64,000 nucleotides of DNA, from assembly GCF_058153355.1 (NCBI RefSeq), contig NZ_CM177019.1. One strand, given 5' to 3'. Positions 481 to 41,045 of this stretch are shown piece after piece (within the stretch, counting starts at the first letter, position 1; each line of letters starts with the position of its first letter). The notes beneath the pieces were generated by a model. It was given only the letters and a program-made list of their open reading frames with translations, searched no databases and was not told the DNA's origin. The position numbers and the translations under genes are program-made.

Positions 481-2064
481 ATGAATTTAACCCTCAAAGA
501 ATCGCTTGTTACCCGTAGCCGGGTATTTAGCCCGTGGACTGCGTTCTACTTTTTACAGTCGCTATTAATTAACCTCGGCTTAGGTTACCCCTTCAGTTTG
601 CTATACACCGCCGCATTTACGGCTATTTTGCTTTTGCTATGGCGAACATTGCCTCGCGTACAAAAAGTTCTGCTCGGTGTCAGTTCACTGATCGCCGCTT
701 GTTATTTCCCTTTTGCACAGGCCTACGGCGCGCCTAACTTCAATACCTTGCTGGCATTGCATTCCACCAATATGGAAGAGTCGACCGAAATCCTGACGAT
801 TTTTCCGTGGTACAGCTACCTGGTCGGCTTATTTATTTTTGCGCTCGGCGTAATAGCAATCAGGCGGAAAAAAGAGAGCGAAAAAGCGCGCTGGAATACC
901 TTCGACAGCCTGTGTCTGGTATTCAGTGTGGCGACATTTTTTGTTGCTCCCATGCAAAACCTGGCCTGGGGCGGCGTATTTAAACTGAAAGATACTGGCT
1001 ATCCGGTATTTCGTTTTGCTAAGGATGTCATCGTCAATAATAACGAGGTGATCGAAGAGCAAGAACGGATGGCAAAACTTTCCGGAATGAAAGATACCTG
1101 GACGGTCACTGCCGTTAAGCCGAAATATCAGACCTATGTGGTGGTGATCGGTGAAAGCGCGCGTCGCGATGCCCTCGGTGCCTTTGGCGGTCACTGGGAC
1201 AATACCCCGTTTGCCAGCAGTGTTAACGGTTTGCTTTTTGCTGACTACATTGCCGCCAGTGGCTCCACGCAGAAATCGCTTGGCTTAACGCTCAATCGCG
1301 TAGTCGATGGCAAACCACAGTTTCAGGATAACTTTGTCACCCTGGCAAATCGCGCGGGCTTCCAGACCTGGTGGTTTTCCAACCAGGGCCAAATCGGCGA
1401 ATACGATACCGCCATCGCCAGCATCGCCAAACGTGCAGATGAAGTGTACTTCCTGAAAGAAGGTAATTTTGAAGCAGATAAAAACACGAAAGACGAAGCG
1501 TTACTGGATATGACCGCTCAAGTGCTGGCACAAGAGCACTCGCAACCACAGCTGATTGTTTTACATCTGATGGGCTCACATCCGCAGGCCTGCGACCGGA
1601 CACAAGGCAAATACGAAACCTTTGTGCAATCGAAAGAAACGTCGTGCTATCTCTATACCATGACGCAAACGGACGATTTACTGCGCAAGCTGTACGATCA
1701 GTTACGCAACAGCGGCAGCAGCTTCTCGCTGGTTTACTTTTCTGACCACGGTCTGGCCTTTAAAGAGCGCGGCAAAGACGTGCAATACCTTGCCCATGAT
1801 GATAAGTATCAGCAAAATTTCCAGGTACCTTTTATGGTCATTTCCAGCGACGATAAAGCGCATCGGGTGATTAAAGCCCGCCGCTCAGCCAATGACTTTT
1901 TAGGCTTTTTCTCGCAGTGGACGGGAATTAAAGCGAAGGAAATTAACATCAAATACCCGTTTATATCTGAGAAGAAAGCCGGGCCGATATACATCACCAA
2001 CTTCCAGTTACAGAAGGTAGATTACAACCATCTCGGAACCGATATTTTCGACCCGAAACCTTAA
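481..2064 (+). CDS. opgE: phosphoethanolamine transferase OpgE (YbiP), 527 aa
   Basis: Long ORF with N-terminal multi-pass membrane region and sulfatase-like domain; position between mntS and ompX matches the K-12 map. Confidence 0.9.
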   Translation: MNLTLKESLVTRSRVFSPWTAFYFLQSLLINLGLGYPFSLLYTAAFTAILLLLWRTLPRVQKVLLGVSSLIAACYFPFAQAYGAPNFNTLLALHSTNMEESTEILTIFPWYSYLVGLFIFALGVIAIRRKKESEKARWNTFDSLCLVFSVATFFVAPMQNLAWGGVFKLKDTGYPVFRFAKDVIVNNNEVIEEQERMAKLSGMKDTWTVTAVKPKYQTYVVVIGESARRDALGAFGGHWDNTPFASSVNGLLFADYIAASGSTQKSLGLTLNRVVDGKPQFQDNFVTLANRAGFQTWWFSNQGQIGEYDTAIASIAKRADEVYFLKEGNFEADKNTKDEALLDMTAQVLAQEHSQPQLIVLHLMGSHPQACDRTQGKYETFVQSKETSCYLYTMTQTDDLLRKLYDQLRNSGSSFSLVYFSDHGLAFKERGKDVQYLAHDDKYQQNFQVPFMVISSDDKAHRVIKARRSANDFLGFFSQWTGIKAKEINIKYPFISEKKAGPIYITNFQLQKVDYNHLGTDIFDPKP

Positions 2065-2071
2065 AAACAAA

Positions 2072-2098
2072 AATCCGCCCCGAGAGGCGGATTTTTTA
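2072..2098. terminator. bidirectional rho-independent terminator between convergent opgE and ompX
   Basis: Hairpin AATCCGCCcCGAGAGGCGGATT flanked by A-run and T-run. Confidence 0.7.
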
Positions 2099-2112
2099 TA
2101 TCACCGAAGTGA

Positions 2113-2628
2113 TTAGAAGCGGTAACCAACACCGGCAATCCAGGTGCCTACGTCAACGCTACGAATACGGCTCTGCTCGTAAGAGAAGTCCAGAGCAACG
2201 TTTTCCATCGGGTTGAACTGCAGACCAGCACCGTAGGAGAAACCGTAGTCGCTGGTGTCGTGTTTGTAGGTCGGGTATTCAGTGGTCTGGAATTTACCGT
2301 AACCCACACCCACTACACCGTAGATGCTTGCCCAGTCGTTAATGCGGTAAGCCGGACCAGCAGTGATGCCGTAGTACTGGTTTTTGTTGTAGTCACCAGA
2401 GCTTGCAGTACGGCTTTTCTCGGTGTAAGTGAAAGAACCGATCACACCCAGCGGGCTGTTGTCTTCTTCATAGCGGTATTTCAGGTTGAAACCGCCCATT
2501 TTGTTCATTTGGCCCTGAGCGTCGCTCTGTGCGTAACCGCCAGTTACGGTAGAAGTCGCAGCTACGGAAGTAGCTGCGGTGAAAGCCAGAACTGCAGCCA
2601 GTGCTGAAAGACATGCAATTTTTTTCAT
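2113..2628 (-). CDS. ompX: outer membrane protein OmpX (171 aa)
   Basis: Translation MKKIACLSALAAVLAFTA...VGYRF recognised as OmpX; start taken at the third Met of the 173-aa ORF. Confidence 0.95.
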   Translation of the reverse strand: MKKIACLSALAAVLAFTAATSVAATSTVTGGYAQSDAQGQMNKMGGFNLKYRYEEDNSPLGVIGSFTYTEKSRTASSGDYNKNQYYGITAGPAYRINDWASIYGVVGVGYGKFQTTEYPTYKHDTSDYGFSYGAGLQFNPMENVALDFSYEQSRIRSVDVGTWIAGVGYRF

Positions 2629-2980
2629 AACCACCTCAAATGTGATTCAAATAAGTCCTAAGTTTTAAATATATCAAAAATTAATGGGAAACTCTTCGCG
2701 ATTTGTGATGTCTAACGGGCCATTTCATGTAACAGAACGTTTCCATACGCCGCTATCCATCTAAATTTAAATCACTTTTTCAGAGAACTGCATAAGTATT
2801 ACGCATGTTTTCCCTGTCATTCATCCAGATTATTCCTAATCACCAGACTAATGATTCCATCAATCCTGGCGCATTTTAGTCAAAACGGGGGAAAATTTTT
2901 TCAACAAATGCTCAACCAGCATTGGGTATATCCAGTACACTCCACGCTTTACTTAGGTTTAGATATTTGTGGGAGAAAGG

Positions 2981-3868
2981 ATGCCTGGTTCATTACGTAA
3001 AATGCCGGTCTGGTTACCAATAGTCATATTGCTCGTTGCCATGGCGTCTATTCAGGGTGGAGCCTCGTTAGCTAAGTCACTTTTTCCTCTGGTGGGTGCA
3101 CCGGGTGTCACTGCGCTGCGTCTGGCATTAGGAACGCTGATCCTCATCGCGTTCTTTAAGCCATGGCGACTGCGCTTTGCCAAAGAGCAACGATTACCGC
3201 TGTTGTTTTACGGCGTTTCGCTGGGTGGGATGAATTATCTTTTTTATCTTTCTATTCAAACGGTCCCACTGGGTATTGCGGTGGCGCTTGAGTTCACCGG
3301 ACCACTGGCGGTGGCGCTGTTCTCTTCTCGTCGCCCGGTAGATTTCGTCTGGGTTGTGCTGGCGGTTCTTGGTCTATGGTTCCTGCTACCGCTGGGGCAA
3401 GACGTTTCCCATGTCGATTTAACCGGCTGTGCGCTGGCACTGGGAGCAGGGGCTTGTTGGGCTATTTACATTTTAAGTGGGCAACGCGCAGGAGCGGAAC
3501 ATGGCCCTGCGACGGTGGCAATTGGTTCGTTGATTGCAGCGTTAATTTTCGTGCCAATTGGAGCGCTTCAGGCTGGTGAAGCACTCTGGCACTGGTCGGT
3601 TATTCCATTAGGTCTGGCTGTCGCTATTCTCTCGACCGCTCTGCCTTATTCGCTGGAAATGATTGCCCTCACCCGTTTGCCAACGCGGACATTTGGTACG
3701 CTGATGAGCATGGAACCGGCGCTGGCTGCCGTTTCCGGGATGATTTTCCTCGGAGAAACATTGACACCCATACAGCTGCTGGCGCTCGGCGCTATCATCG
3801 CCGCTTCAATGGGTTCTACGCTGACAGTACGCAAAGAGAGCAAAATAAAAGAATTAGACATTAATTAA
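2981..3868 (+). CDS. rhtA: threonine/homoserine exporter RhtA (DMT/EamA family)
   Basis: 10-TM EamA-type protein in the conserved position; start placed at MPGSLRK inside the 299-aa ORF. Confidence 0.85.
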   Translation: MPGSLRKMPVWLPIVILLVAMASIQGGASLAKSLFPLVGAPGVTALRLALGTLILIAFFKPWRLRFAKEQRLPLLFYGVSLGGMNYLFYLSIQTVPLGIAVALEFTGPLAVALFSSRRPVDFVWVVLAVLGLWFLLPLGQDVSHVDLTGCALALGAGACWAIYILSGQRAGAEHGPATVAIGSLIAALIFVPIGALQAGEALWHWSVIPLGLAVAILSTALPYSLEMIALTRLPTRTFGTLMSMEPALAAVSGMIFLGETLTPIQLLALGAIIAASMGSTLTVRKESKIKELDIN

Positions 3869-3877
3869 ATTTACATT

Positions 3878-3906
3878 TCTGCATGGTTATGCATAACCAT
3901 GCAGAA
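3878..3906. terminator. perfect palindrome hairpin downstream of rhtA
   Basis: CTGCATGGTTATGCATAACCATGCAG inverted repeat immediately after the rhtA stop codon. Confidence 0.6.
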
Positions 3907-4080
3907 TTTCTCGCTACTTTTCCTCCACACCGTCTTTATATATCGAATTATGCAAAAGCATATTTATTCCGAAAATTCCTGGCGAGCCAATAAATAAGAA
4001 TTGTTCTTATCAATATATCTAACTCATTGAATTTTTATTAGTTTTGTTTTTCACGCTTGTTACCACTATTAGTGTGATAG

Positions 4081-4671
<591 letters not shown>

Positions 4672-4711
4672 ATCCATCGCTGATGGTGCAGAAATTTAGT
4701 AAACGATAACA

Positions 4712-4740
4712 GCGGCTTCCTGACAGGAGGCCGTTTTGTT
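4712..4740 (+). terminator. dps rho-independent terminator
   Basis: Hairpin CGGCTTCCTGacaGGAGGCCG followed by TTTTGTTTT. Confidence 0.6.
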
Positions 4741-4901
4741 TTGCAATCCGCCTCAACGCACTTATTTAGTGCATCCATCCGCTGTCCACGACCATCAAAG
4801 TAAATTTTTTGTATCCACATCATCACACAATCGTTACATAAAGATTGTTTTTTCATCAGGTTTTACGCTAAATAATCACTGTGTTGAGTGCACAATTTTA
4901 G

Positions 4902-5022
4902 CGCACCAGTTTGGTGCCCCAGAATGGTGCATCTTCAGGGTATTGCCCTATAAATCGTGCATTACGTTTTTGCCGCATCTCGATAAATCAATGAGTTGCA
5001 AAACTGGCACGATTTTTTCATA
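4902..5022 (+). promoter_or_regulatory. glnHPQ nitrogen-regulated promoter region (NtrC sites plus sigma-54 promoter)
   Basis: GCACCAGTTTGGTGC and AATGGTGCATC at 4902-4932 resemble NtrC half-sites; TGGCACGATTTTTTCAT at 5005-5021 resembles a -24/-12 sigma-54 promoter about 50 bp upstream of glnH. Confidence 0.5.
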
Positions 5023-5057
5023 TGTGAATGTCACGCAGGGGATCGTCCCGTGGATAG

Positions 5058-5819
<762 letters not shown>

Positions 5820-5834
5820 TAATGCTACGCCTGT

Positions 5835-5910
5835 AAAGCGCACTGGCAGTTCCCTCTCCCCTCTGGGGAGAGGATTAGGGTGAGGGGCGCAAACCCGCTC
5901 CGGGGCCATT
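5835..5910. repeat. intergenic GC-rich stem-loop between glnH and glnP
   Basis: Inverted repeat CCTCTCCCCTCTGGGGAGAGG plus flanking palindromic sequence in the glnH-glnP spacer. Confidence 0.4.
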
Positions 5911-5957
5911 AATTACCCTGAATTTGATTATTTACACCACGGTAACAGGAACAACAT

Positions 5958-6617
5958 ATGCAGTTTGACTGGAGTGCCATCTGGCCTGCCATTCCGCTTC
6001 TGATTGAAGGTGCCAAAATGACCCTGTGGATTTCGGTCCTCGGTCTGGCTGGCGGCCTGGTGATCGGATTGCTGGCAGGTTTTGCACGCACCTTCGGTGG
6101 TTGGATATCCAACCACGTCGCGCTGGTCTTTATTGAAGTGATCCGCGGCACACCTATCGTCGTCCAGGTGATGTTTATCTACTTCGCCCTGCCGATGGCG
6201 TTTAACGACTTACGCATCGACCCATTTACTGCGGCGGTGGTCACCATCATGATCAACTCCGGCGCATACATTGCGGAAATCACGCGTGGTGCGGTGCTGT
6301 CTATCCACAAAGGTTTCCGTGAAGCAGGACTGGCTCTCGGCCTTTCACGTTGGGAAACCATTCGCTACGTCATTTTACCGCTGGCACTGCGTCGTATGCT
6401 GCCGCCGCTGGGTAACCAGTGGATCATCAGCATTAAAGACACCTCGCTGTTTATTGTTATCGGCGTGGCGGAACTGACCCGTCAGGGGCAAGAAATTATT
6501 GCCGGTAACTTCCGCGCCCTTGAGATCTGGAGCGCCGTGGCGGTGTTCTATCTGATTATTACCCTGGTGCTGAGCTTTATTCTGCGTCGTCTGGAAAGAA
6601 GGATGAAAATCCTGTGA
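5958..6617 (+). CDS. glnP: glutamine ABC transporter permease GlnP
   Basis: 219-aa polar amino-acid ABC permease; overlaps the glnQ start by 4 nt. Confidence 0.95.
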
Positions 6618-31984: not shown

Positions 31985-32116
31985 GGCTTCTCTCCTGAAG
32001 AATTTATCTCTACTTACTCAGAGTACCGAACTTTACGGAAAATTCCGTAAGACCGCACCTTTTTGTGACGCCGACTACACTATTTCAATGAGATAAGAGG
32101 CAAAGACAGGAAAATT

Positions 32117-32878
32117 ATGCCCGATCAAACACAACAATTTTCGTTCAAGGTGCTCACCATCAACATTCACAAAGGCTTTACCGCGTTTAACCGACGCTTC
32201 ATTTTGCCGGAACTTCGCGACGCCGTGCGTACCGTCAGCGCCGATATTGTTTGCCTGCAGGAAGTGATGGGCGCGCACGAAGTTCATCCGCTGCATGTGG
32301 AAAACTGGCCCGATACCTCGCACTACGAGTTTCTCGCCGACACCATGTGGAGCGATTTCGCCTACGGTCGCAATGCCGTATACCCGGAAGGGCATCACGG
32401 CAACGCGGTTCTTTCACGTTATCCCATTGAACATTATGAGAATCGCGATGTTTCGGTCGATGGTGCGGAAAAGCGCGGCGTGCTCTACTGCCGCATTGTG
32501 CCGCCGATGACCGGGAAAGCGATTCATGTGATGTGCGTACATCTGGGCCTGCGTGAGGCGCACCGTCAGGCGCAGCTTGCGATGCTCGCCGAATGGGTCA
32601 ATGAGCTGCCGGACGGCGAACCGGTATTAGTGGCGGGTGATTTCAACGACTGGCGGCAAAAAGCTAATCATCCGTTAAAAATGCAGGCCGGGCTGGATGA
32701 GATATTTACCCGCGCCCACGGACGCCCGGCGCGCACGTTTCCGGTGCAATTTCCTCTACTACGTCTGGACAGGATCTATGTCAAAAATGCCAGCGCCAGC
32801 GCGCCAACCGCGTTGCCGCTGCGGACATGGCGACACCTTTCTGATCATGCCCCTTTAAGTGCGGAGATTCATTTATGA
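32117..32878 (+). CDS. ybhP: endonuclease/exonuclease/phosphatase family protein YbhP
   Basis: 253-aa EEP-fold ORF, translationally coupled to clsB. Confidence 0.85.
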
Positions 32879-34116
32879 AATGTAGCTGGCGCGAAGGCAA
32901 TAAGATCCAGTTGCTGGAAAACGGCGAGCAATATTATCCCGCGGTGTTTAAGGCGATTGGCGAGGCACAAGAACGCATCATTCTTGAAACGTTTATCTGG
33001 TTTGAGGATGACGTCGGCAAACAGCTGCATGCGGTACTACTGGCAGCAGCGCAACGCGGGGTAAAAGCGGAAGTCTTGCTGGATGGCTACGGTTCGCCGG
33101 ATCTCAGCGATGATTTTGTCAATGAACTGACGGCAGCTGGCGTGGTGTTCCGCTACTACGATCCCCGCCCTCGCCTTTTTGGTATGCGCACCAATGTGTT
33201 TCGCCGGATGCATCGCAAAATTGTGGTGATCGACGCACGTATCGCCTTTATTGGTGGGCTGAATTACTCCGCCGAGCATATGTCCAGCTACGGTCCAGAG
33301 GCTAAACAGGATTACGCAGTGCGCCTTGAAGGGCCGATTGTCGAAGATATTCTCCAGTTTGAACTGGAAAACCTGCCAGGACACAGCGCAGCACGACGCT
33401 GGTGGCGACGTCATCACAAAGCGGAAGAAAACCGCCAGCCGGGAGAAGCGCAGGTATTATTGGTTTGGCGCGATAACGAAGAACATCGTGATGATATCGA
33501 ACGCCACTATCTGAAAATGCTCACTCAGGCGCGTCGGGAAGTGATTATCGCCAACGCCTACTTCTTTCCTGGCTATCGATTTTTGCACGCCTTACGCAAA
33601 GCGGCACGGCGCGGGGTGCGGATCAAGCTGATCATTCAGGGCGAACCGGATATGCCCATTGTCAGAGTCGGCGCGCGTTTACTGTACAACTATCTGGTTA
33701 AAGGCGGCGTTCAGGTTTTTGAGTACCGCCGCCGCCCGCTCCACGGCAAAGTAGCATTGATGGACGATCACTGGGCGACAGTAGGGTCCAGTAATCTCGA
33801 TCCGCTCAGTTTGTCGCTAAATCTCGAAGCAAACGTCATCATTCACGATCGTCATTTTAACCAGACGCTACGCGATAATCTGAACGGCATCATCGCCGCC
33901 GACTGTCAACAAGTGGATGAATCCATGCTGCCGAAACGCACCTGGTGGAACCTGACCAAAAGCGTGCTGGCATTCCATTTTTTGCGCCACTTCCCGGCGC
34001 TAGTGGGCTGGCTTCCGGCGCACACGCCGCGTCTGGCGCAAGTTGATCCCCCCGCACAACCGACAATGGAAACTCAGGATCGGATAGAAACTGAAAATAC
34101 GGGGGTAAAACCCTGA
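32875..34116 (+). CDS. clsB: cardiolipin synthase B (phospholipase D family)
   Basis: Two HxK(x)4D motifs (HRKIVVID and HGKVALMDD). Confidence 0.9.
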
Positions 34117-35072
34117 TGAGTAAATCACGCCCGCGCTGGCGCTTAGCAAAGAAGATCCTCACCTGGCTGTTTTTTATCGCAGTGATTGTGTTGCTGGTGA
34201 TCTACGCCAAAAAGGTAGACTGGGAAGAGGTCTGGAAGGTTATCCGCGATTACAATCGCGTTGCGTTGCTCAGTGCGATTGGGCTGGTGGTCGTCAGCTA
34301 TCTGATATATGGCTGCTACGACCTGCTCGCCCGTTTCTACTGCGGTCACAAACTGGCGAAGCGCCAGGTGATGCTGGTGTCGTTTATCTGCTACGCCTTC
34401 AATCTGACGCTCAGTACCTGGGTCGGCGGCATTGGTATGCGCTATCGTTTGTACTCCCGGCTAGGGTTACCGGGCAGCACTATTACGCGGATTTTCTCGC
34501 TCAGTATTACCACCAACTGGCTGGGCTATATTTTGCTGGCCGGGATTATCTTTACCGCAGGCGTGGTGGAGCTGCCGGATCACTGGTATGTCGATCAAAC
34601 TACGCTGCGTATTCTCGGCATTGGCTTACTGCTGATTATCGCGGTTTATTTGTGGTTTTGCGCTTTCGCGAAGCACCGCCATATGACCATCAAAGGGCAA
34701 AAGCTGGTGCTGCCTTCATGGAAATTCGCCCTCGCCCAGATGCTGATTTCCAGCGTTAACTGGATGGTAATGGGAGCGATTATCTGGCTGTTGCTGGGTC
34801 AAAACGTGAACTATTTCTTTGTACTGGGCGTATTACTGGTAAGCAGTATTGCCGGGGTAATTGTGCATATTCCGGCGGGAATTGGTGTACTGGAAGCGGT
34901 GTTTATCGCGCTACTGGCTGGGGAGCATACCTCCAAAGGCACAATTATCGCCGCCCTGCTCGCTTACCGTGTGCTGTATTACTTTATCCCGCTGCTGCTG
35001 GCGCTGATCTGTTACCTGTTGCTGGAAAGCCAGGCGAAGAAGCTACGAGCGAAAAATGAAGCGGTAATGTGA
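34116..35072 (+). CDS. ybhN: inner membrane protein YbhN (lysylphosphatidylglycerol-synthase TM-region family)
   Basis: 318-aa multi-TM protein, translationally coupled to clsB. Confidence 0.85.
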   Translation: MSKSRPRWRLAKKILTWLFFIAVIVLLVIYAKKVDWEEVWKVIRDYNRVALLSAIGLVVVSYLIYGCYDLLARFYCGHKLAKRQVMLVSFICYAFNLTLSTWVGGIGMRYRLYSRLGLPGSTITRIFSLSITTNWLGYILLAGIIFTAGVVELPDHWYVDQTTLRILGIGLLLIIAVYLWFCAFAKHRHMTIKGQKLVLPSWKFALAQMLISSVNWMVMGAIIWLLLGQNVNYFFVLGVLLVSSIAGVIVHIPAGIGVLEAVFIALLAGEHTSKGTIIAALLAYRVLYYFIPLLLALICYLLLESQAKKLRAKNEAVM

Positions 35073-35075
35073 AGT

Positions 35076-35339
35076 TCAGTTAAGTTCTTTTGGTTTAAGT
35101 TCGGGATGCTGTTTATAGATGGGGTTCATGATATCGATTAACATGCGCCCCATAATTTCCCCGACGGCGGAACGATAAATATTAAGCTCAGATTCATCGC
35201 AAGCTTGCTGAACATATAATACTGACGCATCTAATTGAGCACCAATATTGAGCATTAATGCGCTGATATCTGCTGCCAGAGTCTTATCTTTGAACATTTT
35301 ATAAACCTTTTCAATTTCTAAACATAAAAGATACTGCAT
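35076..35339 (-). CDS. hypothetical 87-aa protein, overlapping the 122-aa ORF by 29 nt (possibly one frameshifted gene)
   Basis: ORF in the same AT-rich insert; its start overlaps the end of the upstream ORF in a different frame. Confidence 0.35.
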   Translation of the reverse strand: MQYLLCLEIEKVYKMFKDKTLAADISALMLNIGAQLDASVLYVQQACDESELNIYRSAVGEIMGRMLIDIMNPIYKQHPELKPKELN

Positions 35340-35679
35340 GTTCCATTTTATTACCTACGGGATAATTATCTTTTATTGCATATGTAAAATCACTTGTTTT
35401 GGTTATTAAGTTTTTTATAGCATCATCAAGATACTCAGGAACTAATGATTCAATATTTTCAAGATCACAACCAAGATCAATTATCTCTATTAGCTCTTTA
35501 TCACAATCATTTTTGTGTAAAAGCCTGGAAATAAAAGGTCTGAAAACTAGTAGTTCAGATTCATCTATAGTTATCGTGCCTTCTTTCAAGGAATGTAACA
35601 CTCCTGAAAGCAGTATAGCCATAAATTTATCCATATATTTATTATCGATGGTACAAACTAACTGCATGATATTCTCCAC
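35311..35679 (-). CDS. hypothetical acidic 122-aa protein in an AT-rich insert
   Basis: ORF inside a ~0.65-kb AT-rich segment between ybhN and ybhM; no recognisable domain. Confidence 0.4.
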   Translation of the reverse strand: MENIMQLVCTIDNKYMDKFMAILLSGVLHSLKEGTITIDESELLVFRPFISRLLHKNDCDKELIEIIDLGCDLENIESLVPEYLDDAIKNLITKTSDFTYAIKDNYPVGNKMEHAVSFMFRN

Positions 35680-35725
35680 TATTGTATTTCAGATACTACA
35701 TTTCTAAACGTAAGTCGAAAGTGCG

Positions 35726-36439
35726 TTAAATATGAAACCGCGTATGCCTTTGCCAGACAAGCGTTATCGCTATTGCTGCAAGAATCCCAAAGAAGCTGAT
35801 AAAATAGTAATAGAGTGTTAATGCACCTGTAACAGCGCAACGAACCGGACTCCACAACTCTTCGCTATGGCATTTTCCTGCCAGTTCAAGGAGCTTATTT
35901 CGTCCATGCGAGATAATGCCTGACCATAAGACAATCATTAAGCAACTTATTACCCAAACAGGCCGTTCACTCATTAATGCGGTATTTACGCTGATCACCA
36001 GAGTCAACCCTGTCAACGTCATCATAATGATGAAACGGTGAGAACCAGGATCAACATTAAATAATAAACCGGCCTGCATACTGATTAAAAACATCGCGCC
36101 CGCAGTGCTGAACACAAGGATAATGGCAGATACAGGAACTAAACTAGCAACGACAATCGCCACCAAAGAGATTAAAAACAGATACATTACGCCTGCGATG
36201 GCGGCATTTATCTTGTTGATATCCTTACTTAAACCATACATACAAAGTAATAATAATCCTATGGCGACATACATTTGCGGTGAATCATATTTTGTTGCCG
36301 TAATTTCGAGATGCTTAGCTCCCCAGGCCAGTCCTGCGGTTGCCACCAAACCGACAGCGGTAATGAGCCATATGCCGTTTAATATCCTGGCCTCGTACTG
36401 AAAATCATTAGTTATGTTTTTTGATGAGTACGATTTCAT
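35726..36439 (-). CDS. ybhM: BAX inhibitor-1 (BI-1/YccA) family inner membrane protein, 237 aa
   Basis: 7-TM protein; its length matches my recollection of K-12 YbhM. Assignment relative to the adjacent paralogue is uncertain. Confidence 0.6.
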   Translation of the reverse strand: MKSYSSKNITNDFQYEARILNGIWLITAVGLVATAGLAWGAKHLEITATKYDSPQMYVAIGLLLLCMYGLSKDINKINAAIAGVMYLFLISLVAIVVASLVPVSAIILVFSTAGAMFLISMQAGLLFNVDPGSHRFIIMMTLTGLTLVISVNTALMSERPVWVISCLMIVLWSGIISHGRNKLLELAGKCHSEELWSPVRCAVTGALTLYYYFISFFGILAAIAITLVWQRHTRFHI

Positions 36440-36507
36440 TATTTTTATATCCTTAAGTTGAATATCAATATCTATTGCAATTAACGCAAAAAACTCATCA
36501 ATTCACG

Positions 36508-37248
36508 CTACCACACTAAACCATTAATAAAGTCAAGAACCGTTACAGCAAGTCTAAAAAGGACGCTTAGGATACAGAAATAGAGTGTTATTGCCCCTGC
36601 AACAATACAGCGAAGAACACCTGAAAATTCAGAGTTGTCGGCAACACGGATCAAATCTTCCAGTGTTGTTGCTTCACAGGCAGCCGTAACGCCCCAGATA
36701 ACGACAGTCAAAATACTCGCTAACCATACGGAAAAACTGCTGGTAAGAATCAGGTTAACAACAAAAGCAATACTCAAACCACAGAAGATATATAAACATA
36801 ACTGTCTAACTGGTGGGATAGCCCTATTAATACAACAGCAAATCAGCGCCATTGTGGCAAACATCCCTCCCGTAATTCCCATTACCGTCACTATGCTTGA
36901 AAAGGTAAAAAGTCTGGAGAAGAGAAAGCCATTAAGTAGGATTATTAGCAGATAGACCAGACATGCGCCTGATACCTCGAGCCTTTTCAGGGCATCGTTT
37001 AACCAGAAACCAATTATTATCAGCGCAGATAAAGCGAAGACAAACGCGCCTGGAGATTCTAGTGAAGCAACCCAATGCAAGTGCTGAAATATCCAGGCAC
37101 AGCCTGCCGTAGCCCATACTCCAGCAGCTGTTAACCACCAAATGAGGAACAGCATTTTGCTGAGCGAAGCGCTTTTTTGCTGTAATTGAGTAGCAGTGGA
37201 TCGTCTGTTCAAATGCGTTATCTGCCCCTGAAATTGCGTAGTGGACAT
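36508..37248 (-). CDS. second BI-1-family inner membrane protein (246 aa), divergent tandem paralogue
   Basis: 7-TM protein with conserved blocks shared with the 237-aa ORF (e.g. LxxIWxLTAxGxxATAGxAW) but well below half identity by eye. Confidence 0.55.
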   Translation of the reverse strand: MSTTQFQGQITHLNRRSTATQLQQKSASLSKMLFLIWWLTAAGVWATAGCAWIFQHLHWVASLESPGAFVFALSALIIIGFWLNDALKRLEVSGACLVYLLIILLNGFLFSRLFTFSSIVTVMGITGGMFATMALICCCINRAIPPVRQLCLYIFCGLSIAFVVNLILTSSFSVWLASILTVVIWGVTAACEATTLEDLIRVADNSEFSGVLRCIVAGAITLYFCILSVLFRLAVTVLDFINGLVW

Positions 37249-37321
37249 AGTCTGGCATTTGCGGCGATTCAGTTCTCATGTAAATGAGCGGAATAGTCTT
37301 TATAAAATCCGAAAAAAAATC

Positions 37322-37352
37322 CCGACACATGGCCGGGATATTGATGGTGAAA
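37322..37352 (-). terminator. ybhL rho-independent terminator
   Basis: On the minus strand, hairpin CCCGGCCATGTGTCGGG followed by ATTTTTTTT directly after the ybhL stop. Confidence 0.6.
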
Positions 37353-37357
37353 AAGAA

Positions 37358-38062
37358 TTAACGGCGGTTGCCGAAGATCCTCAACAACATCAGGAACAGG
37401 TTGATGAAGTCCAGATATAAGGTTAACGCGCCAAGAATGGAATATTTGCGCAGGTTTGACGTGTCGCGGGTATCAATCTGCTCACCCATATTTTTCAATT
37501 TCTGAGTGTCATATGCCGTCAATCCGACAAAGACAATCACGCCGATGTAGGTGACTGCCCACATCAATGCTTCGCTTTTCAGCCAGAAGTTGACCAGCGA
37601 TGCCAGCACAATGCCGATTAACGCCATAAACAGCATATTGCCAAAGCCGCTTAGATCACGTTTGGTGGTGTAACCGTACAGGCTCATTGCGCCGAACATC
37701 CCGGCAGTAACGACGAAAGTACTGGCAATCGAGGCGGCGGTATAGACAATGAAAATACTGGAAAGCGTAAGACCCGTCAGCGCCGAATAAAGCATAAAGA
37801 GCATCGTCGTTACACCTGCGCTCAACTTTTGAATCATCGCTGATAACACAATAACCAATGCTAATTGCGCGATGATCAGACCGATTAAAAAGACACGGTT
37901 AGTGAACAACAGCTCCATCACGGCCGCGGAATTAGCCGCATACCAGGCAACAAATGCTGTCAGCAACAAGCCAACGGTCATCCAGCCATAGACTTGCGCC
38001 ATATAAGTTTGCAAGCCAGCCCGGGGTTGTACAATTGAATCAGAACGTGGGAATCTGTCCAT
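37358..38062 (-). CDS. ybhL: BI-1-family inner membrane protein YbhL
   Basis: 234-aa 7-TM protein MDRFPRSDSIVQPRAGLQTYMAQVYGWM... in the conserved position next to moaE. Confidence 0.9.
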   Translation of the reverse strand: MDRFPRSDSIVQPRAGLQTYMAQVYGWMTVGLLLTAFVAWYAANSAAVMELLFTNRVFLIGLIIAQLALVIVLSAMIQKLSAGVTTMLFMLYSALTGLTLSSIFIVYTAASIASTFVVTAGMFGAMSLYGYTTKRDLSGFGNMLFMALIGIVLASLVNFWLKSEALMWAVTYIGVIVFVGLTAYDTQKLKNMGEQIDTRDTSNLRKYSILGALTLYLDFINLFLMLLRIFGNRR

Positions 38063-38197
38063 GACGATCTCCTGAAGATATAAGGAATATCTTAAGGATA
38101 CTGCAAATGATGAGGCTGTGCATCGACGCAGCGTAAACGCATATACTGAGCGGTGAAATTGCCGGACGCAGCGGTGCCTTATCCGGCTAACAAAAAA

Positions 38198-38650
38198 CTA
38201 CCAGCGTTTTGCTGCCTGCTGATCGCTCTCCCGGGCTTCAACCCAGCGGTCGCCTTCCGGCGTGGCTTCGCGCTTCCAGAACGGTGCGCGGGTTTTGAGA
38301 TAGTCCATAATAAACTGCCCGGCTTCAAACGCACTGCTGCGATGCGCACTGGTGACACCGACAAAAACGATTTCATCGCCCGGCCATAATTCCCCGATGC
38401 GGTGAATCACAGTGACGCGCCCCAGCGGCCAGCGGTTACGCGCTTCATCGACAATTTCTGCCAGTGCTTTTTCAGTCATCCCCGGATAGTGTTCGAGGGT
38501 TAATGCTTTGACGCTGTCGCCCAGGTTATGGTTGCGCACCTTACCGGTAAAGGTGACTACCGCACCGTCTTCGTCACGCTCAGCCAGCCACGGGTACTCT
38601 TCTCCTACACTGAACGGCTGCGGGCCGACAACAATTTTGGTTTCTGCCAT
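38198..38650 (-). CDS. moaE: molybdopterin synthase catalytic subunit MoaE
   Basis: 150-aa ORF, last gene of the moaABCDE operon. Confidence 0.95.
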   Translation of the reverse strand: MAETKIVVGPQPFSVGEEYPWLAERDEDGAVVTFTGKVRNHNLGDSVKALTLEHYPGMTEKALAEIVDEARNRWPLGRVTVIHRIGELWPGDEIVFVGVTSAHRSSAFEAGQFIMDYLKTRAPFWKREATPEGDRWVEARESDQQAAKRW

Positions 38651-38651
38651 T

Positions 38652-38897
38652 TTAACCTCCGGTCACCGGCGGGAAGAAAGCCACTTCGTCGCCGTCAGTC
38701 AGCGGATGGTCAAAACTCACCAGCGTCTGGTTGACGGCAGCCAGCAATTTGCCATCTTCCAGCGCCAGCGCCCAGCGATCGCTCTGCGCAGCCAGATGTT
38801 GGCGTAACGCTTCAACGGTTGGGAAATCCGCAGCCACTTCGCTTGCATCTGTTCCCACCAACTCGCGCACCTGGGCGAAAAAAAGAACTTTAATCAT
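38652..38897 (-). CDS. moaD: molybdopterin synthase sulfur-carrier subunit MoaD (81 aa)
   Basis: [15 protein letters not shown]... ending in the conserved C-terminal GG; start set inside the 102-aa ORF. Confidence 0.9.
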
Positions 38898-39375
38898 CCG
38901 CTTCCACCTTAAAGTCACCTGACTTGCCGCCGCTCTTCGCCAGCAAACGTACCGGACCAATTACCATATCTTTTTGCACCGCTTTGCACATGTCATAAAT
39001 GGTCAGCGCCGCCACCGAGGCCGCGGTTAACGCTTCCATTTCAACGCCGGTTTTCCCGGTCAGGCGGCATAAGGTTTCTATACGCACCCGATTGTGCTCC
39101 GGCTCGGCCTGCAAATTGACTTCAACTTTACTGAGCATCAGCGGATGACAAAGCGGGATCAAATCCCATGTGCGTTTTGCTGCCTGAATACCGGCAATAC
39201 GCGCAGTGGCAAATACGTCGCCTTTGTGGTGGCGACCATCAATGATCATCGCCAGCGTCTCGCTGCGCATGGTGACAAAGGCTTCGGCGCGCGCTTCACG
39301 CACGGTTTCCGCTTTGGCGGAAACATCCACCATGTGCGCTTCGCCAGCGGCGTTGATATGAGTCAGTTGCAACAT
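38890..39375 (-). CDS. moaC: cyclic pyranopterin monophosphate synthase accessory protein MoaC
   Basis: 161-aa ORF in the operon position. Confidence 0.95.
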
Positions 39376-39377
39376 AC

Positions 39378-39890
39378 TTATTTCTTCAAATGTGGATGGA
39401 AATTACACGGACGCGTACGGGCATCCAGCTGCGGTGCGATGATATTTTCCCAGGCGGTACGGCACGCTTTGGTCGAACCCGGCATGGCGAAAATCAGCGT
39501 TTTGTTAGCGACGCCCGCTACCGCACGAGATTGCAACGTTGAGGTGCCAATCTCTTCGAACGACAACATACGGAACACTTCACCAAAACCTTCAACTTCA
39601 CGGTCGAACAGCGGCAGCAGTGCTTCAGGTGCCTGATCGCCTTCGGTCAGACCAGTACCACCCGTAATCAACACCACTTGTACATCGTCGCTGGCGATCC
39701 ACGCAGATACCTGAGCGCGAATGGCATAGCGGTTTTCTTTCACAATGGCTTTATCGACAACGTGATGGCCCGCGTCCTGCGCCGAGTCGCGCAGATAGTG
39801 ACCGGAGGTATCGTCTTCTTCACCGCGACGATTAGAAACCGTAAGAATAGCAATACGGGTCGGGATAAATTCAGTGCTTACCTGACTCAT
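39378..39890 (-). CDS. moaB: molybdenum cofactor biosynthesis protein MoaB
   Basis: 170-aa MogA/MoaB-fold ORF. Confidence 0.95.
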
Positions 39891-39911
39891 CTGATCTCTC
39901 CTTTTGACGTT

Positions 39912-40901
39912 TTAGCCGCCAATGTACGATAAGTTTTGCGTAATACCGGTGTTGTTTTGATGCAGGAAATGGGTCTGTTTCTTCTCCCGCAGCGCCGCTG
40001 AAATACGCGCTTCCAGCGCCTGTTGCTGGGTATCGTCTTCCAGCAGATCGCGCAGGTTAACGCCGCCTTCACCGAACAGGCAGAGATGGAGTTTACCAAT
40101 GGAGGAGACGCGCAGGCGGTTGCAAGTGGCGCAGAAGTCTTTTTCATACGGCATGATAAGGCCAATCTCTCCGGCGTAATCCGGATGACAAAAGACTTGC
40201 GCGGGACCGTCGCTGCGTTGACGTAATTGGTGGATCCAGCCGCGACGCAGTAACTCGTCACGCAGAACCTGACCAGAGATGTGATGCTTACGGAAGAGCT
40301 CGCTGCCCTCGCCCGTTTCCATCAGTTCGATGAAACGCAGCTGGATGGGGCGATGCTGGATCCAGTTCAGAAAGGTGTCGAGTTGGTGATGATTAACATC
40401 ACGCATCAGCACGGTATTGACTTTGACCTTCTCAAAACCGGCCTCAAATGCAGCATCGATCCCTGCCATGACCTGATTGAATTTATCCTGTCCGGTAATA
40501 GCATGAAACTGGCGAGCGTCGAGGCTATCGACACTCACGTTGATACCAGTAAGACCAGCATCACGCCAGTTCGCTACATCTCGTTCCAGACGGTAACCAT
40601 TGGTGGTGACCGCAATCTGGCGGATAGCGTCGTTTTCTCGCACAGCGGCGATGATATCGGTAAAGTCGCGACGCAAAGACGGCTCTCCGCCCGTCAGACG
40701 GACTTTTTCGGTGCCCAGACTGGCGAAGGCGCGCGTAACCCGGCGAATTTCATCGACGGTCAGAAAGCCTTTATTGGTGACGCCGCTCGGTTTGTAGCCA
40801 TCCGGCAGGCAGTAGGTGCAACGGAAGTTGCACACATCGGTAATCGACAGGCGCAAGTAGTAAAACTTACGCGCAAATGCATCAGTCAGTTGTGAAGCCA
40901 T
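39912..40901 (-). CDS. moaA: GTP 3',8-cyclase MoaA (radical SAM), 329 aa
   Basis: CNFRCTYC radical-SAM motif near the N-terminus; start set at [22 protein letters not shown] inside the 356-aa ORF. Confidence 0.95.
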
Positions 40902-41045
40902 GTACACCTTTCCAGATACGGGAGGCGAAATCATTTCTTCCTTCGCCCTGGTGGCAATCTTTGTAAGCATTGTCACGGCCAAAGCACCGTATCAGTTGAC
41001 CCAGGTGCAGAGGCTAGAGTGTTTAGTGGTTAAGCCGATACTAGC
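40902..41045 (-). promoter_or_regulatory. moaA 5' leader; expected position of the molybdenum-cofactor (Moco) riboswitch
   Basis: Established knowledge that the E. coli moaABCDE leader carries a Moco riboswitch; the structure was not verified here. Confidence 0.45.

Follow-up and report, generated by a model that had tools for sequence, protein, structure and literature searches.

The locus raises the question of why two small reading frames lie between ybhN and ybhM, which in E. coli K-12 are adjacent and only 35 bp apart. In the 64-kb stretch of DNA analyzed here (the window), these reading frames are found between ybhN (34116-35072, plus strand; LPG_synthase_TM) and a ybhM-type gene of the Bax1-I (BI-1) family (35726-36439, minus strand), the product of which shares 90% amino acid identity with K-12 YbhM. 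A first, sequence-only reading of the locus had correctly given the flanking genes as adjacent in K-12. It took the segment for a small insert that could carry either a single frameshifted gene of about 200 aa or a compact two-gene cassette (for instance an immunity or chaperone-like pair), and recognized no domain in it. We asked whether the reading frames are genes, what their products might do, and how the difference with K-12 arose.

Two small genes between ybhN and ybhM

Comparison of the window with K-12 (NC_000913) by blastn and global alignment delimited a K-12-absent segment of 644 bp (35091-35734), which stands in place of 26 bp in K-12. A further K-12-absent block (36472-37312) carries an extra Bax1-I paralogue of 246 aa (36508-37248, minus strand), part of the same variable, co-oriented array; the ybhM-type gene is itself directly upstream of the segment and in the same orientation. 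The AT-richness noticed earlier was confirmed, the GC content being 0.27-0.32 over positions 35300-35700 versus 0.50-0.55 for ybhN and clsB.

The listing of open reading frames agrees with the earlier description in placing two minus-strand ORFs between ybhN and the BI-1-family gene, one of 122 aa (35311-35679, GTG start) and one of 87 aa (35076-35339, ATG start). These longest ORFs share 29 nt (35311-35339) in different frames. Alignment with homologues indicated later starts for both, namely MQLVCT... for a protein of 118 aa (ATG at 35667) and MFKDKT... for a protein of 73 aa (ATG at 35297), and the RefSeq annotation of near-identical loci likewise shows a 118-aa and a 73-aa gene. The 29-nt overlap therefore holds for the longest ORFs, of which it is an artefact, and disappears with the homologue-supported starts. 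The genes then occupy 35311-35667 and 35076-35297 and are separated by a 13-nt spacer (35298-35310, minus strand), which can be read directly from the sequence between the TGA stop of the upstream gene (35311-35313) and the ATG of the 73-aa gene, and which is also found in the RefSeq annotation of near-identical loci. The start codon of the 118-aa gene is preceded at 6 nt by GGAG, that of the 73-aa gene at 8 nt by AAGG.

Upstream of the 118-aa gene, a spacer of 58 nt (35668-35725, minus strand) extends to the stop codon of the ybhM-type gene and contains the GGAG (35675-35678). A consensus scan found in it a promoter-like TTTAGA-16-TACAAT (35708-35681); the number of promoter-like sites in the region was not above that in shuffled sequence.

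Both genes have homologues beyond Escherichia, and both show a dN/dS of 0.2-0.3 between alleles with dS values of up to 0.9. Across these alleles the two-gene layout is kept, with differing spacers. The 118-aa and 73-aa ORFs are real genes under purifying selection.

The DUF3969 family and a putative toxin domain

The earlier impression that neither product contains a recognizable domain does not hold for the larger one. The 118-aa protein matches the Pfam family DUF3969 (PF13108) with 56.9 bits (E = 2.5e-15; gathering cut-off, 25 bits) over model positions 4-87 of 106, and near-identical proteins are named 'DUF3969 family protein' in RefSeq. As had been remarked, it is acidic, with a pI of 4.7. 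Its AF2 model (pLDDT 94) is a helical bundle closed by paired N- and C-terminal strands. PADLOC, PHROGs and NCBIfam scans of both window proteins gave nothing useful, the best PADLOC and PHROGs matches being unrelated and having E values of 0.008 or weaker, and the searchable literature contains no mention of DUF3969 or PF13108.

An exhaustive profile search brought the DUF3969 family to 314 clusters at 50% identity, with members in Salmonella salamae, Xenorhabdus, Pseudomonas aeruginosa and Listeria booriae. The domain is also found fused to Barstar, to DUF4176 and CdiI_4, to pentapeptide repeats, to HEAT repeats and, in tandem, to a second DUF3969, a pattern typical for poly-immunity proteins. 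In P. aeruginosa, DUF3969 is present with Imm42 in an orphan cassette array that follows CdiA. The P. aeruginosa gene preceding DUF3969 was considered as a toxin candidate and rejected, its product being acidic and without significant similarity to the toxin described below. Also set aside was P0009 (excerpt 2825-3226), in which the N-terminal half of DUF3969 seems joined to a fragment with a Fic motif, HPFxxGNGR; it lies beside an N gap on a metagenome scaffold and is probably an assembly artefact.

The closest non-Escherichia relative of the window protein pointed to a partner. This relative, about 36% identical (the top non-Escherichia value in an alignment of 112 sequences), comes from Salmonella enterica subsp. 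salamae, where its gene follows those for Hcp, VgrG and a 1491-aa T6SS Rhs protein, and overlaps the Rhs stop codon by 4 nt. The C-terminal domain of this Rhs protein starts after a DPLGL motif. Its last approximately 80 residues recur, with 57-63% identity, directly upstream of DUF3969 in Xenorhabdus, where the carrier is a signal-peptide protein of 135 aa, and in a giant metagenomic RHS-repeat protein, of which they form the end.

A scan for this domain, restricted to one genome per species, yielded 31 loci, in which DUF3969 was then sought by a local HMM search. DUF3969 was found downstream and on the same strand at 30 of them, with a gap of at most 40 nt at 29; the remaining locus is a contig of 562 nt and stops at the toxin. 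Nearly half of the loci (15/31) come from four Xenorhabdus species. The others belong to Snodgrassella, Gilliamella, Entomohabitans, Pseudomonas, Parabeggiatoa, Bacillus, Evansella, Thermoactinomyces, Staphylococcus schweitzeri, Ruminococcus, Robertmurraya, a Lachnospiraceae genome and a Clostridia genome. The linkage is spread over Proteobacteria and Firmicutes. At three loci DUF3969 is intact and the toxin is frameshifted. The carriers are CdiA proteins (Fil_haemagg_2, DUF637, PT-VENN), PT-TG, PT-HINT and RHS-repeat proteins, the rest being short signal-peptide proteins. On Moraxella bovis plasmids, DUF3969 follows a filamentous haemagglutinin.

The consensus of the domain reads Y.SIKDAP.YPKGF...NGT......LL..LR..E.GKW.KVYKDG......SIHYFQS.SG.VF.VKV..GWS. 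and its pI is about 10, against 4.4-4.7 for DUF3969. No match to it was found in Pfam (searched with single sequences and with 20 members), NCBIfam or PDB sequence profiles. Its SIHYFQS motif may resemble the 'DHYQTF' of barnase. From the charge contrast and the conserved His, Glu, Arg and Lys, one may suppose that the domain is a nuclease, though this is only a guess. Taken together, the position of DUF3969 downstream of the domain, its fusions and the charge contrast form the signature of a cognate toxin/immunity pair. On this sequence evidence, DUF3969 is newly linked to a putative polymorphic-toxin C-terminal domain of about 80 aa, previously undescribed. The suggestion that the segment might be a compact cassette of the immunity type was well founded in this respect.

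Xenorhabdus yunnanensis has at least seven toxin-DUF3969 modules in one genome. At the two Xenorhabdus loci for which the proteins were read, the toxin is a Sec-type signal-peptide protein of about 135-160 aa and not a CdiA or Rhs C-terminal domain; the other Xenorhabdus toxin ORFs, at 147-181 aa, are comparable in size.

E. coli itself contains a decayed Rhs-toxin/DUF3969 orphan module, in 597-950 of 5426 genomes, from which we conclude that the toxin family has circulated in this species. In one example (pL65-4, excerpt 376-1315), the toxin is split by a frameshift and DUF3969 is broken into pieces of 33 and 64 aa. The window protein is 41% identical to the broken DUF3969 of the E. coli module. 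E. coli records of 6.7-7.3 kb were considered as bacteriocin plasmids and rejected; they are Rhs-element fragments with frameshifted genes, and these 'plasmids' look like circularized Rhs-repeat fragments. A further record, NZ_OL790696.1, labelled as a 4.8-Mb plasmid, turned out to be a chromosome.

The 73-aa protein and the history of the locus

The product of the second gene (35076-35297, minus strand) belongs to no Pfam family. Neither did it match significantly any entry of NCBIfam, PADLOC or PHROGs. The only hit in all was a sub-threshold one to CpeT (17.6 bits for a cut-off of 21). It is acidic (pI 4.9), and its AF2 model, built from a shallow alignment of Escherichia sequences only, is a two-helix hairpin with a pLDDT of 85; Foldseek found no match to this model in the PDB at E ≤0.001. 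A profile search retrieved 88 homologues, nearly all of about 73 aa and standing alone in distant bacteria. The window protein shares 41-62% identity with the homologues found in methanotrophs and in environmental metagenomes.

One context links this family to a possible toxin. In Methylomicrobium, a homologue starts 56 nt after an Rhs gene, the C-terminal domain of which is an 85-aa Cys-rich peptide. In a Methylomicrobium with an IS-displaced Rhs, 24 residues from the very end of the C-terminal domain are still present upstream of the 73-aa gene; such retention of the tail after IS insertion is typical of toxin/immunity modules. The 85-aa domain (excerpts 770-1027 and 137-391) ends with a hydrophobic, Pro- and Trp-containing tail, FPWWIPLIPLLTPWPDPY, belongs to no family that we recognized, and might be membrane-active. 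The toxin linkage of the 73-aa family is confined to the Methylomicrobium lineage. Otherwise the gene is found in extended arrays of small, unannotated ORFs, all running in one direction and including Ank and DUF7674 proteins, and, in Methyloglobulus, downstream of an MFS transporter with no toxin. Furthermore, conservation at 41-62% identity among distant Gammaproteobacteria is more than would be expected of an immunity protein and counts against such a role. We put at about even the chance that the 73-aa gene is a second, unrelated orphan immunity gene, which makes it a weaker candidate than DUF3969.

The segment is rare in E. coli. It is found, whole or in part, in 30 of 5426 complete genomes, at least 80% of it being present in 23, and 5342 of the 5426 have an uninterrupted ybhN-ybhM junction of the K-12 type. 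This bears out the earlier expectation that the segment would be missing from K-12-like genomes and that its products would not be conserved core proteins. The term 'insert', however, probably gives the wrong direction. Alignment showed that the end of the 73-aa gene, KELN* (four codons and the stop; 35076-35090, minus strand), is kept in the K-12 ybhN-ybhM spacer as AAAGAACTTAACTAA. The KPKEL C-terminus is intrinsic to the 73-aa family, the Methylomicrobium members included. Moreover, E. albertii has at the same locus, downstream of ybhL, a ybhM-like gene, DUF3969 and the 73-aa gene, in this order. The tail of the 73-aa gene in K-12, the pair in E. albertii and the deep divergence of the alleles all argue for an old array that was lost by deletion and against a recent insertion. 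The common E. coli state would then probably be a deletion, and the 15-nt K-12 remnant its relic; the array appears to be ancestral to the genus and to have been deleted in about 98% of sequenced E. coli.

The E. albertii locus (excerpt 1111-6382) has no ybhN, clsB or ybhP. A 553-aa sulfatase is encoded between ybhL and the ybhM-like gene, and ybhQ directly follows DUF3969 and the 73-aa gene.

A probable orphan immunity array and its alternatives

In other strains the content of the array varies. In E. coli 042, DUF3969 and the 73-aa gene are separated by two genes, one for a SUKH-4 immunity protein and one for a protein of 152 aa; strain 2020CK-00188 lacks DUF3969 but possesses the 73-aa gene. 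The 152-aa protein, encoded in some E. coli arrays at a position flanked by SUKH-4 and DUF3969 (excerpt 2430-2888 for 042, 3430-3888 for another), has no family match and may be another immunity candidate.

An HMM of the toxin domain found neither toxin nor relic in the 64-kb window, in six other E. coli ybhN-ybhL loci or in one metagenome contig. With no toxin in it, the window contains DUF3969 as an orphan, that is, not paired with a cognate toxin within these 64 kb. An obligate functional pairing of the two genes is not supported: a homologue of the 73-aa protein was present at none of the 31 toxin-DUF3969 loci.

The toxin linkage at 30 of 31 loci, the immunity-type fusions and arrays, and the absence of a local toxin together support the interpretation that we favor as the probable one: the segment holds two independent, co-oriented small cytoplasmic genes, which are members of a variable array, located between ybhL/ybhM and ybhN, of orphan immunity genes against polymorphic toxins, and DUF3969 is an immunity family for the approximately 80-aa toxin. 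The toxin domain would be delivered on CdiA, T6SS Rhs or PT-TG/PT-HINT toxins, or as a short signal-peptide protein. The DUF3969 protein would bind the incoming domain 1:1 in the cytoplasm and block its activity. As no toxin gene is present in the window, the window copy would serve for protection against attack by other strains rather than against self-intoxication. Binding, neutralization, allele specificity and expression of the window genes are all features that we infer from sequence. Immunity is usually allele-specific, and the identity of only about 31-41% between the window allele and toxin-linked DUF3969 proteins counts against the proposal.

We considered the possibility that the two ORFs are parts of a single gene of about 200 aa split by a frameshift, as the 29-nt overlap of the longest ORFs in different frames had suggested. 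This has next to no chance of being correct: the DUF3969 domain is complete, with its terminal strands paired in the pLDDT-94 model, the 73-aa homologues stand alone in distant taxa, the two-gene layout persists with varying spacers between alleles that have diverged to a dS of 0.9, and the genes are found apart in E. coli 042 and 2020CK-00188. Small genes 13 nt apart in AT-rich accessory DNA could also be a type II toxin-antitoxin pair. Yet both proteins are acidic and helical, neither matches a toxin-antitoxin or defence family in Pfam, NCBIfam or PADLOC, and the genes occur apart in other strains, the 73-aa partner being absent from the 31 DUF3969 loci; such a pair is therefore very improbable.

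The small size, acidity, helical fold and tight link to Rhs and CdiA toxins would also be in keeping with a role of DUF3969 as an effector chaperone or adaptor (cf. DUF1795/EagR, DUF4123 and DUF2169). We give this explanation only a slim chance. Adaptors follow the N-terminal delivery region of an effector, whereas DUF3969 is always downstream of the C-terminal toxin domain, and this across unrelated delivery systems (Sec signal only; Gram-positive PT-TG); it also persists where the toxin is frameshifted and is fused to known immunity domains. Finally, the genes might be kept for a function other than immunity, such as a small regulatory or housekeeping one, co-transcribed with the BI-1 genes, or they might be slowly decaying relics of an old island. 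The lack of a local toxin, the conservation of the pair at the E. albertii locus, the good conservation of the 73-aa family (41-62%), often in toxin-free contexts, and the loss of the genes from most E. coli all fit this explanation. We nevertheless hold it to be rather unlikely, since it does not readily account for the linkage of DUF3969 to the toxin or for the fusions with Barstar and CdiI_4, a SUKH-4 gene is present in the same array, and a dN/dS of 0.2-0.3 speaks against decay.

The favored interpretation, an array of orphan immunity genes, has precedents. Orphan immunity genes and orphan C-terminal-toxin/immunity modules are known for CDI and Rhs systems (Poole et al. 2011, PMC3150448; Koskiniemi et al. 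2014, PMC3967940). The present case is similar in that it concerns a small cytoplasmic gene, the homologues of which directly follow a variable CdiA or Rhs C-terminal toxin domain, and in that DUF3969 occurs without toxin, in arrays with SUKH-4 and Imm42, its presence varying by strain. It differs by its location away from cdi, rhs and T6SS loci, between the housekeeping-type genes ybhM and ybhN and with no toxin relic, and by a family and a toxin partner that were previously undescribed. The pair also recalls barnase/barstar and the colicin nucleases with their Im proteins, where a small basic secreted toxin domain is likewise followed immediately downstream by the gene of an acidic inhibitor. 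Some DUF3969-linked carriers are, like barnase, short signal-peptide proteins, and one DUF3969 protein is fused to a Barstar domain. However, no sequence relationship was detected with barnase, barstar, the colicin domains or Im proteins, and nuclease activity is in the present case a guess.

The acquired interbacterial defence (AID) clusters of Bacteroidales are large and are located on mobile elements. They were reportedly described by Ross et al. in 2019 as chromosomal immunity genes without matching toxins and proposed to protect against the toxins of competitors. The ybh locus would similarly comprise chromosomal immunity genes without matching toxins, but it consists of two to five genes at a fixed chromosomal site, is apparently ancestral to the genus and has been lost in most E. 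coli.

For DUF3969, a family of 314 clusters with no literature, these observations propose a testable role as cognate immunity partner to a toxin domain of about 80 aa that is itself undescribed; this domain is used by, among others, Salmonella, Pseudomonas, Xenorhabdus, Moraxella, Bacillus and Staphylococcus. In E. coli, they point to an immunity array that is small, hypervariable and located at a fixed position in the chromosome. Genes of this orphan type are relevant to how strains withstand contact-dependent killing in the gut. Since orphan immunity is a well-established concept, the DUF3969 case extends the catalogue and changes no principle; the family assignment is new.

The ybhL-ybhN interval further contains one to four tandem BI-1-like genes (in the window, 35726-36439, 36508-37248 and 37358-38062), which fall into four classes with 23-40% mutual identity and share the orientation of the immunity-type genes. 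Identity with the K-12 counterpart is 100% for YbhL and only 90% for YbhM; the presence of the 246/234-aa and 232-aa classes varies, and their GC content is 0.36-0.44. A bolder proposal, which we regard as distinctly unlikely, is that the entire interval from ybhL to ybhN forms an immunity island ancestral in Escherichia, in which the BI-1-like proteins (YbhM and up to two further paralogue classes) would also confer immunity, against membrane-targeting toxins. If true, ybhM, a y-gene of K-12, would acquire a function, and immunity proteins that are multi-pass membrane proteins would form a new class; this would come in addition to a new pair of toxin and immunity families, the basic toxin of about 80 aa and DUF3969. 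A literature search on ybhM and ybhL found no relevant papers.

As to its origin, the window appears, from sequence identity, to come from a divergent Escherichia or E. coli lineage. In the moa region (38100-42100), its identity with the best complete E. coli genomes is no higher than 98.4%, and 1051 genomes are at 90-95%. The genomes nearest to the window, in this region as well as over 32000-39000, are the same rare strains that have the cassette.
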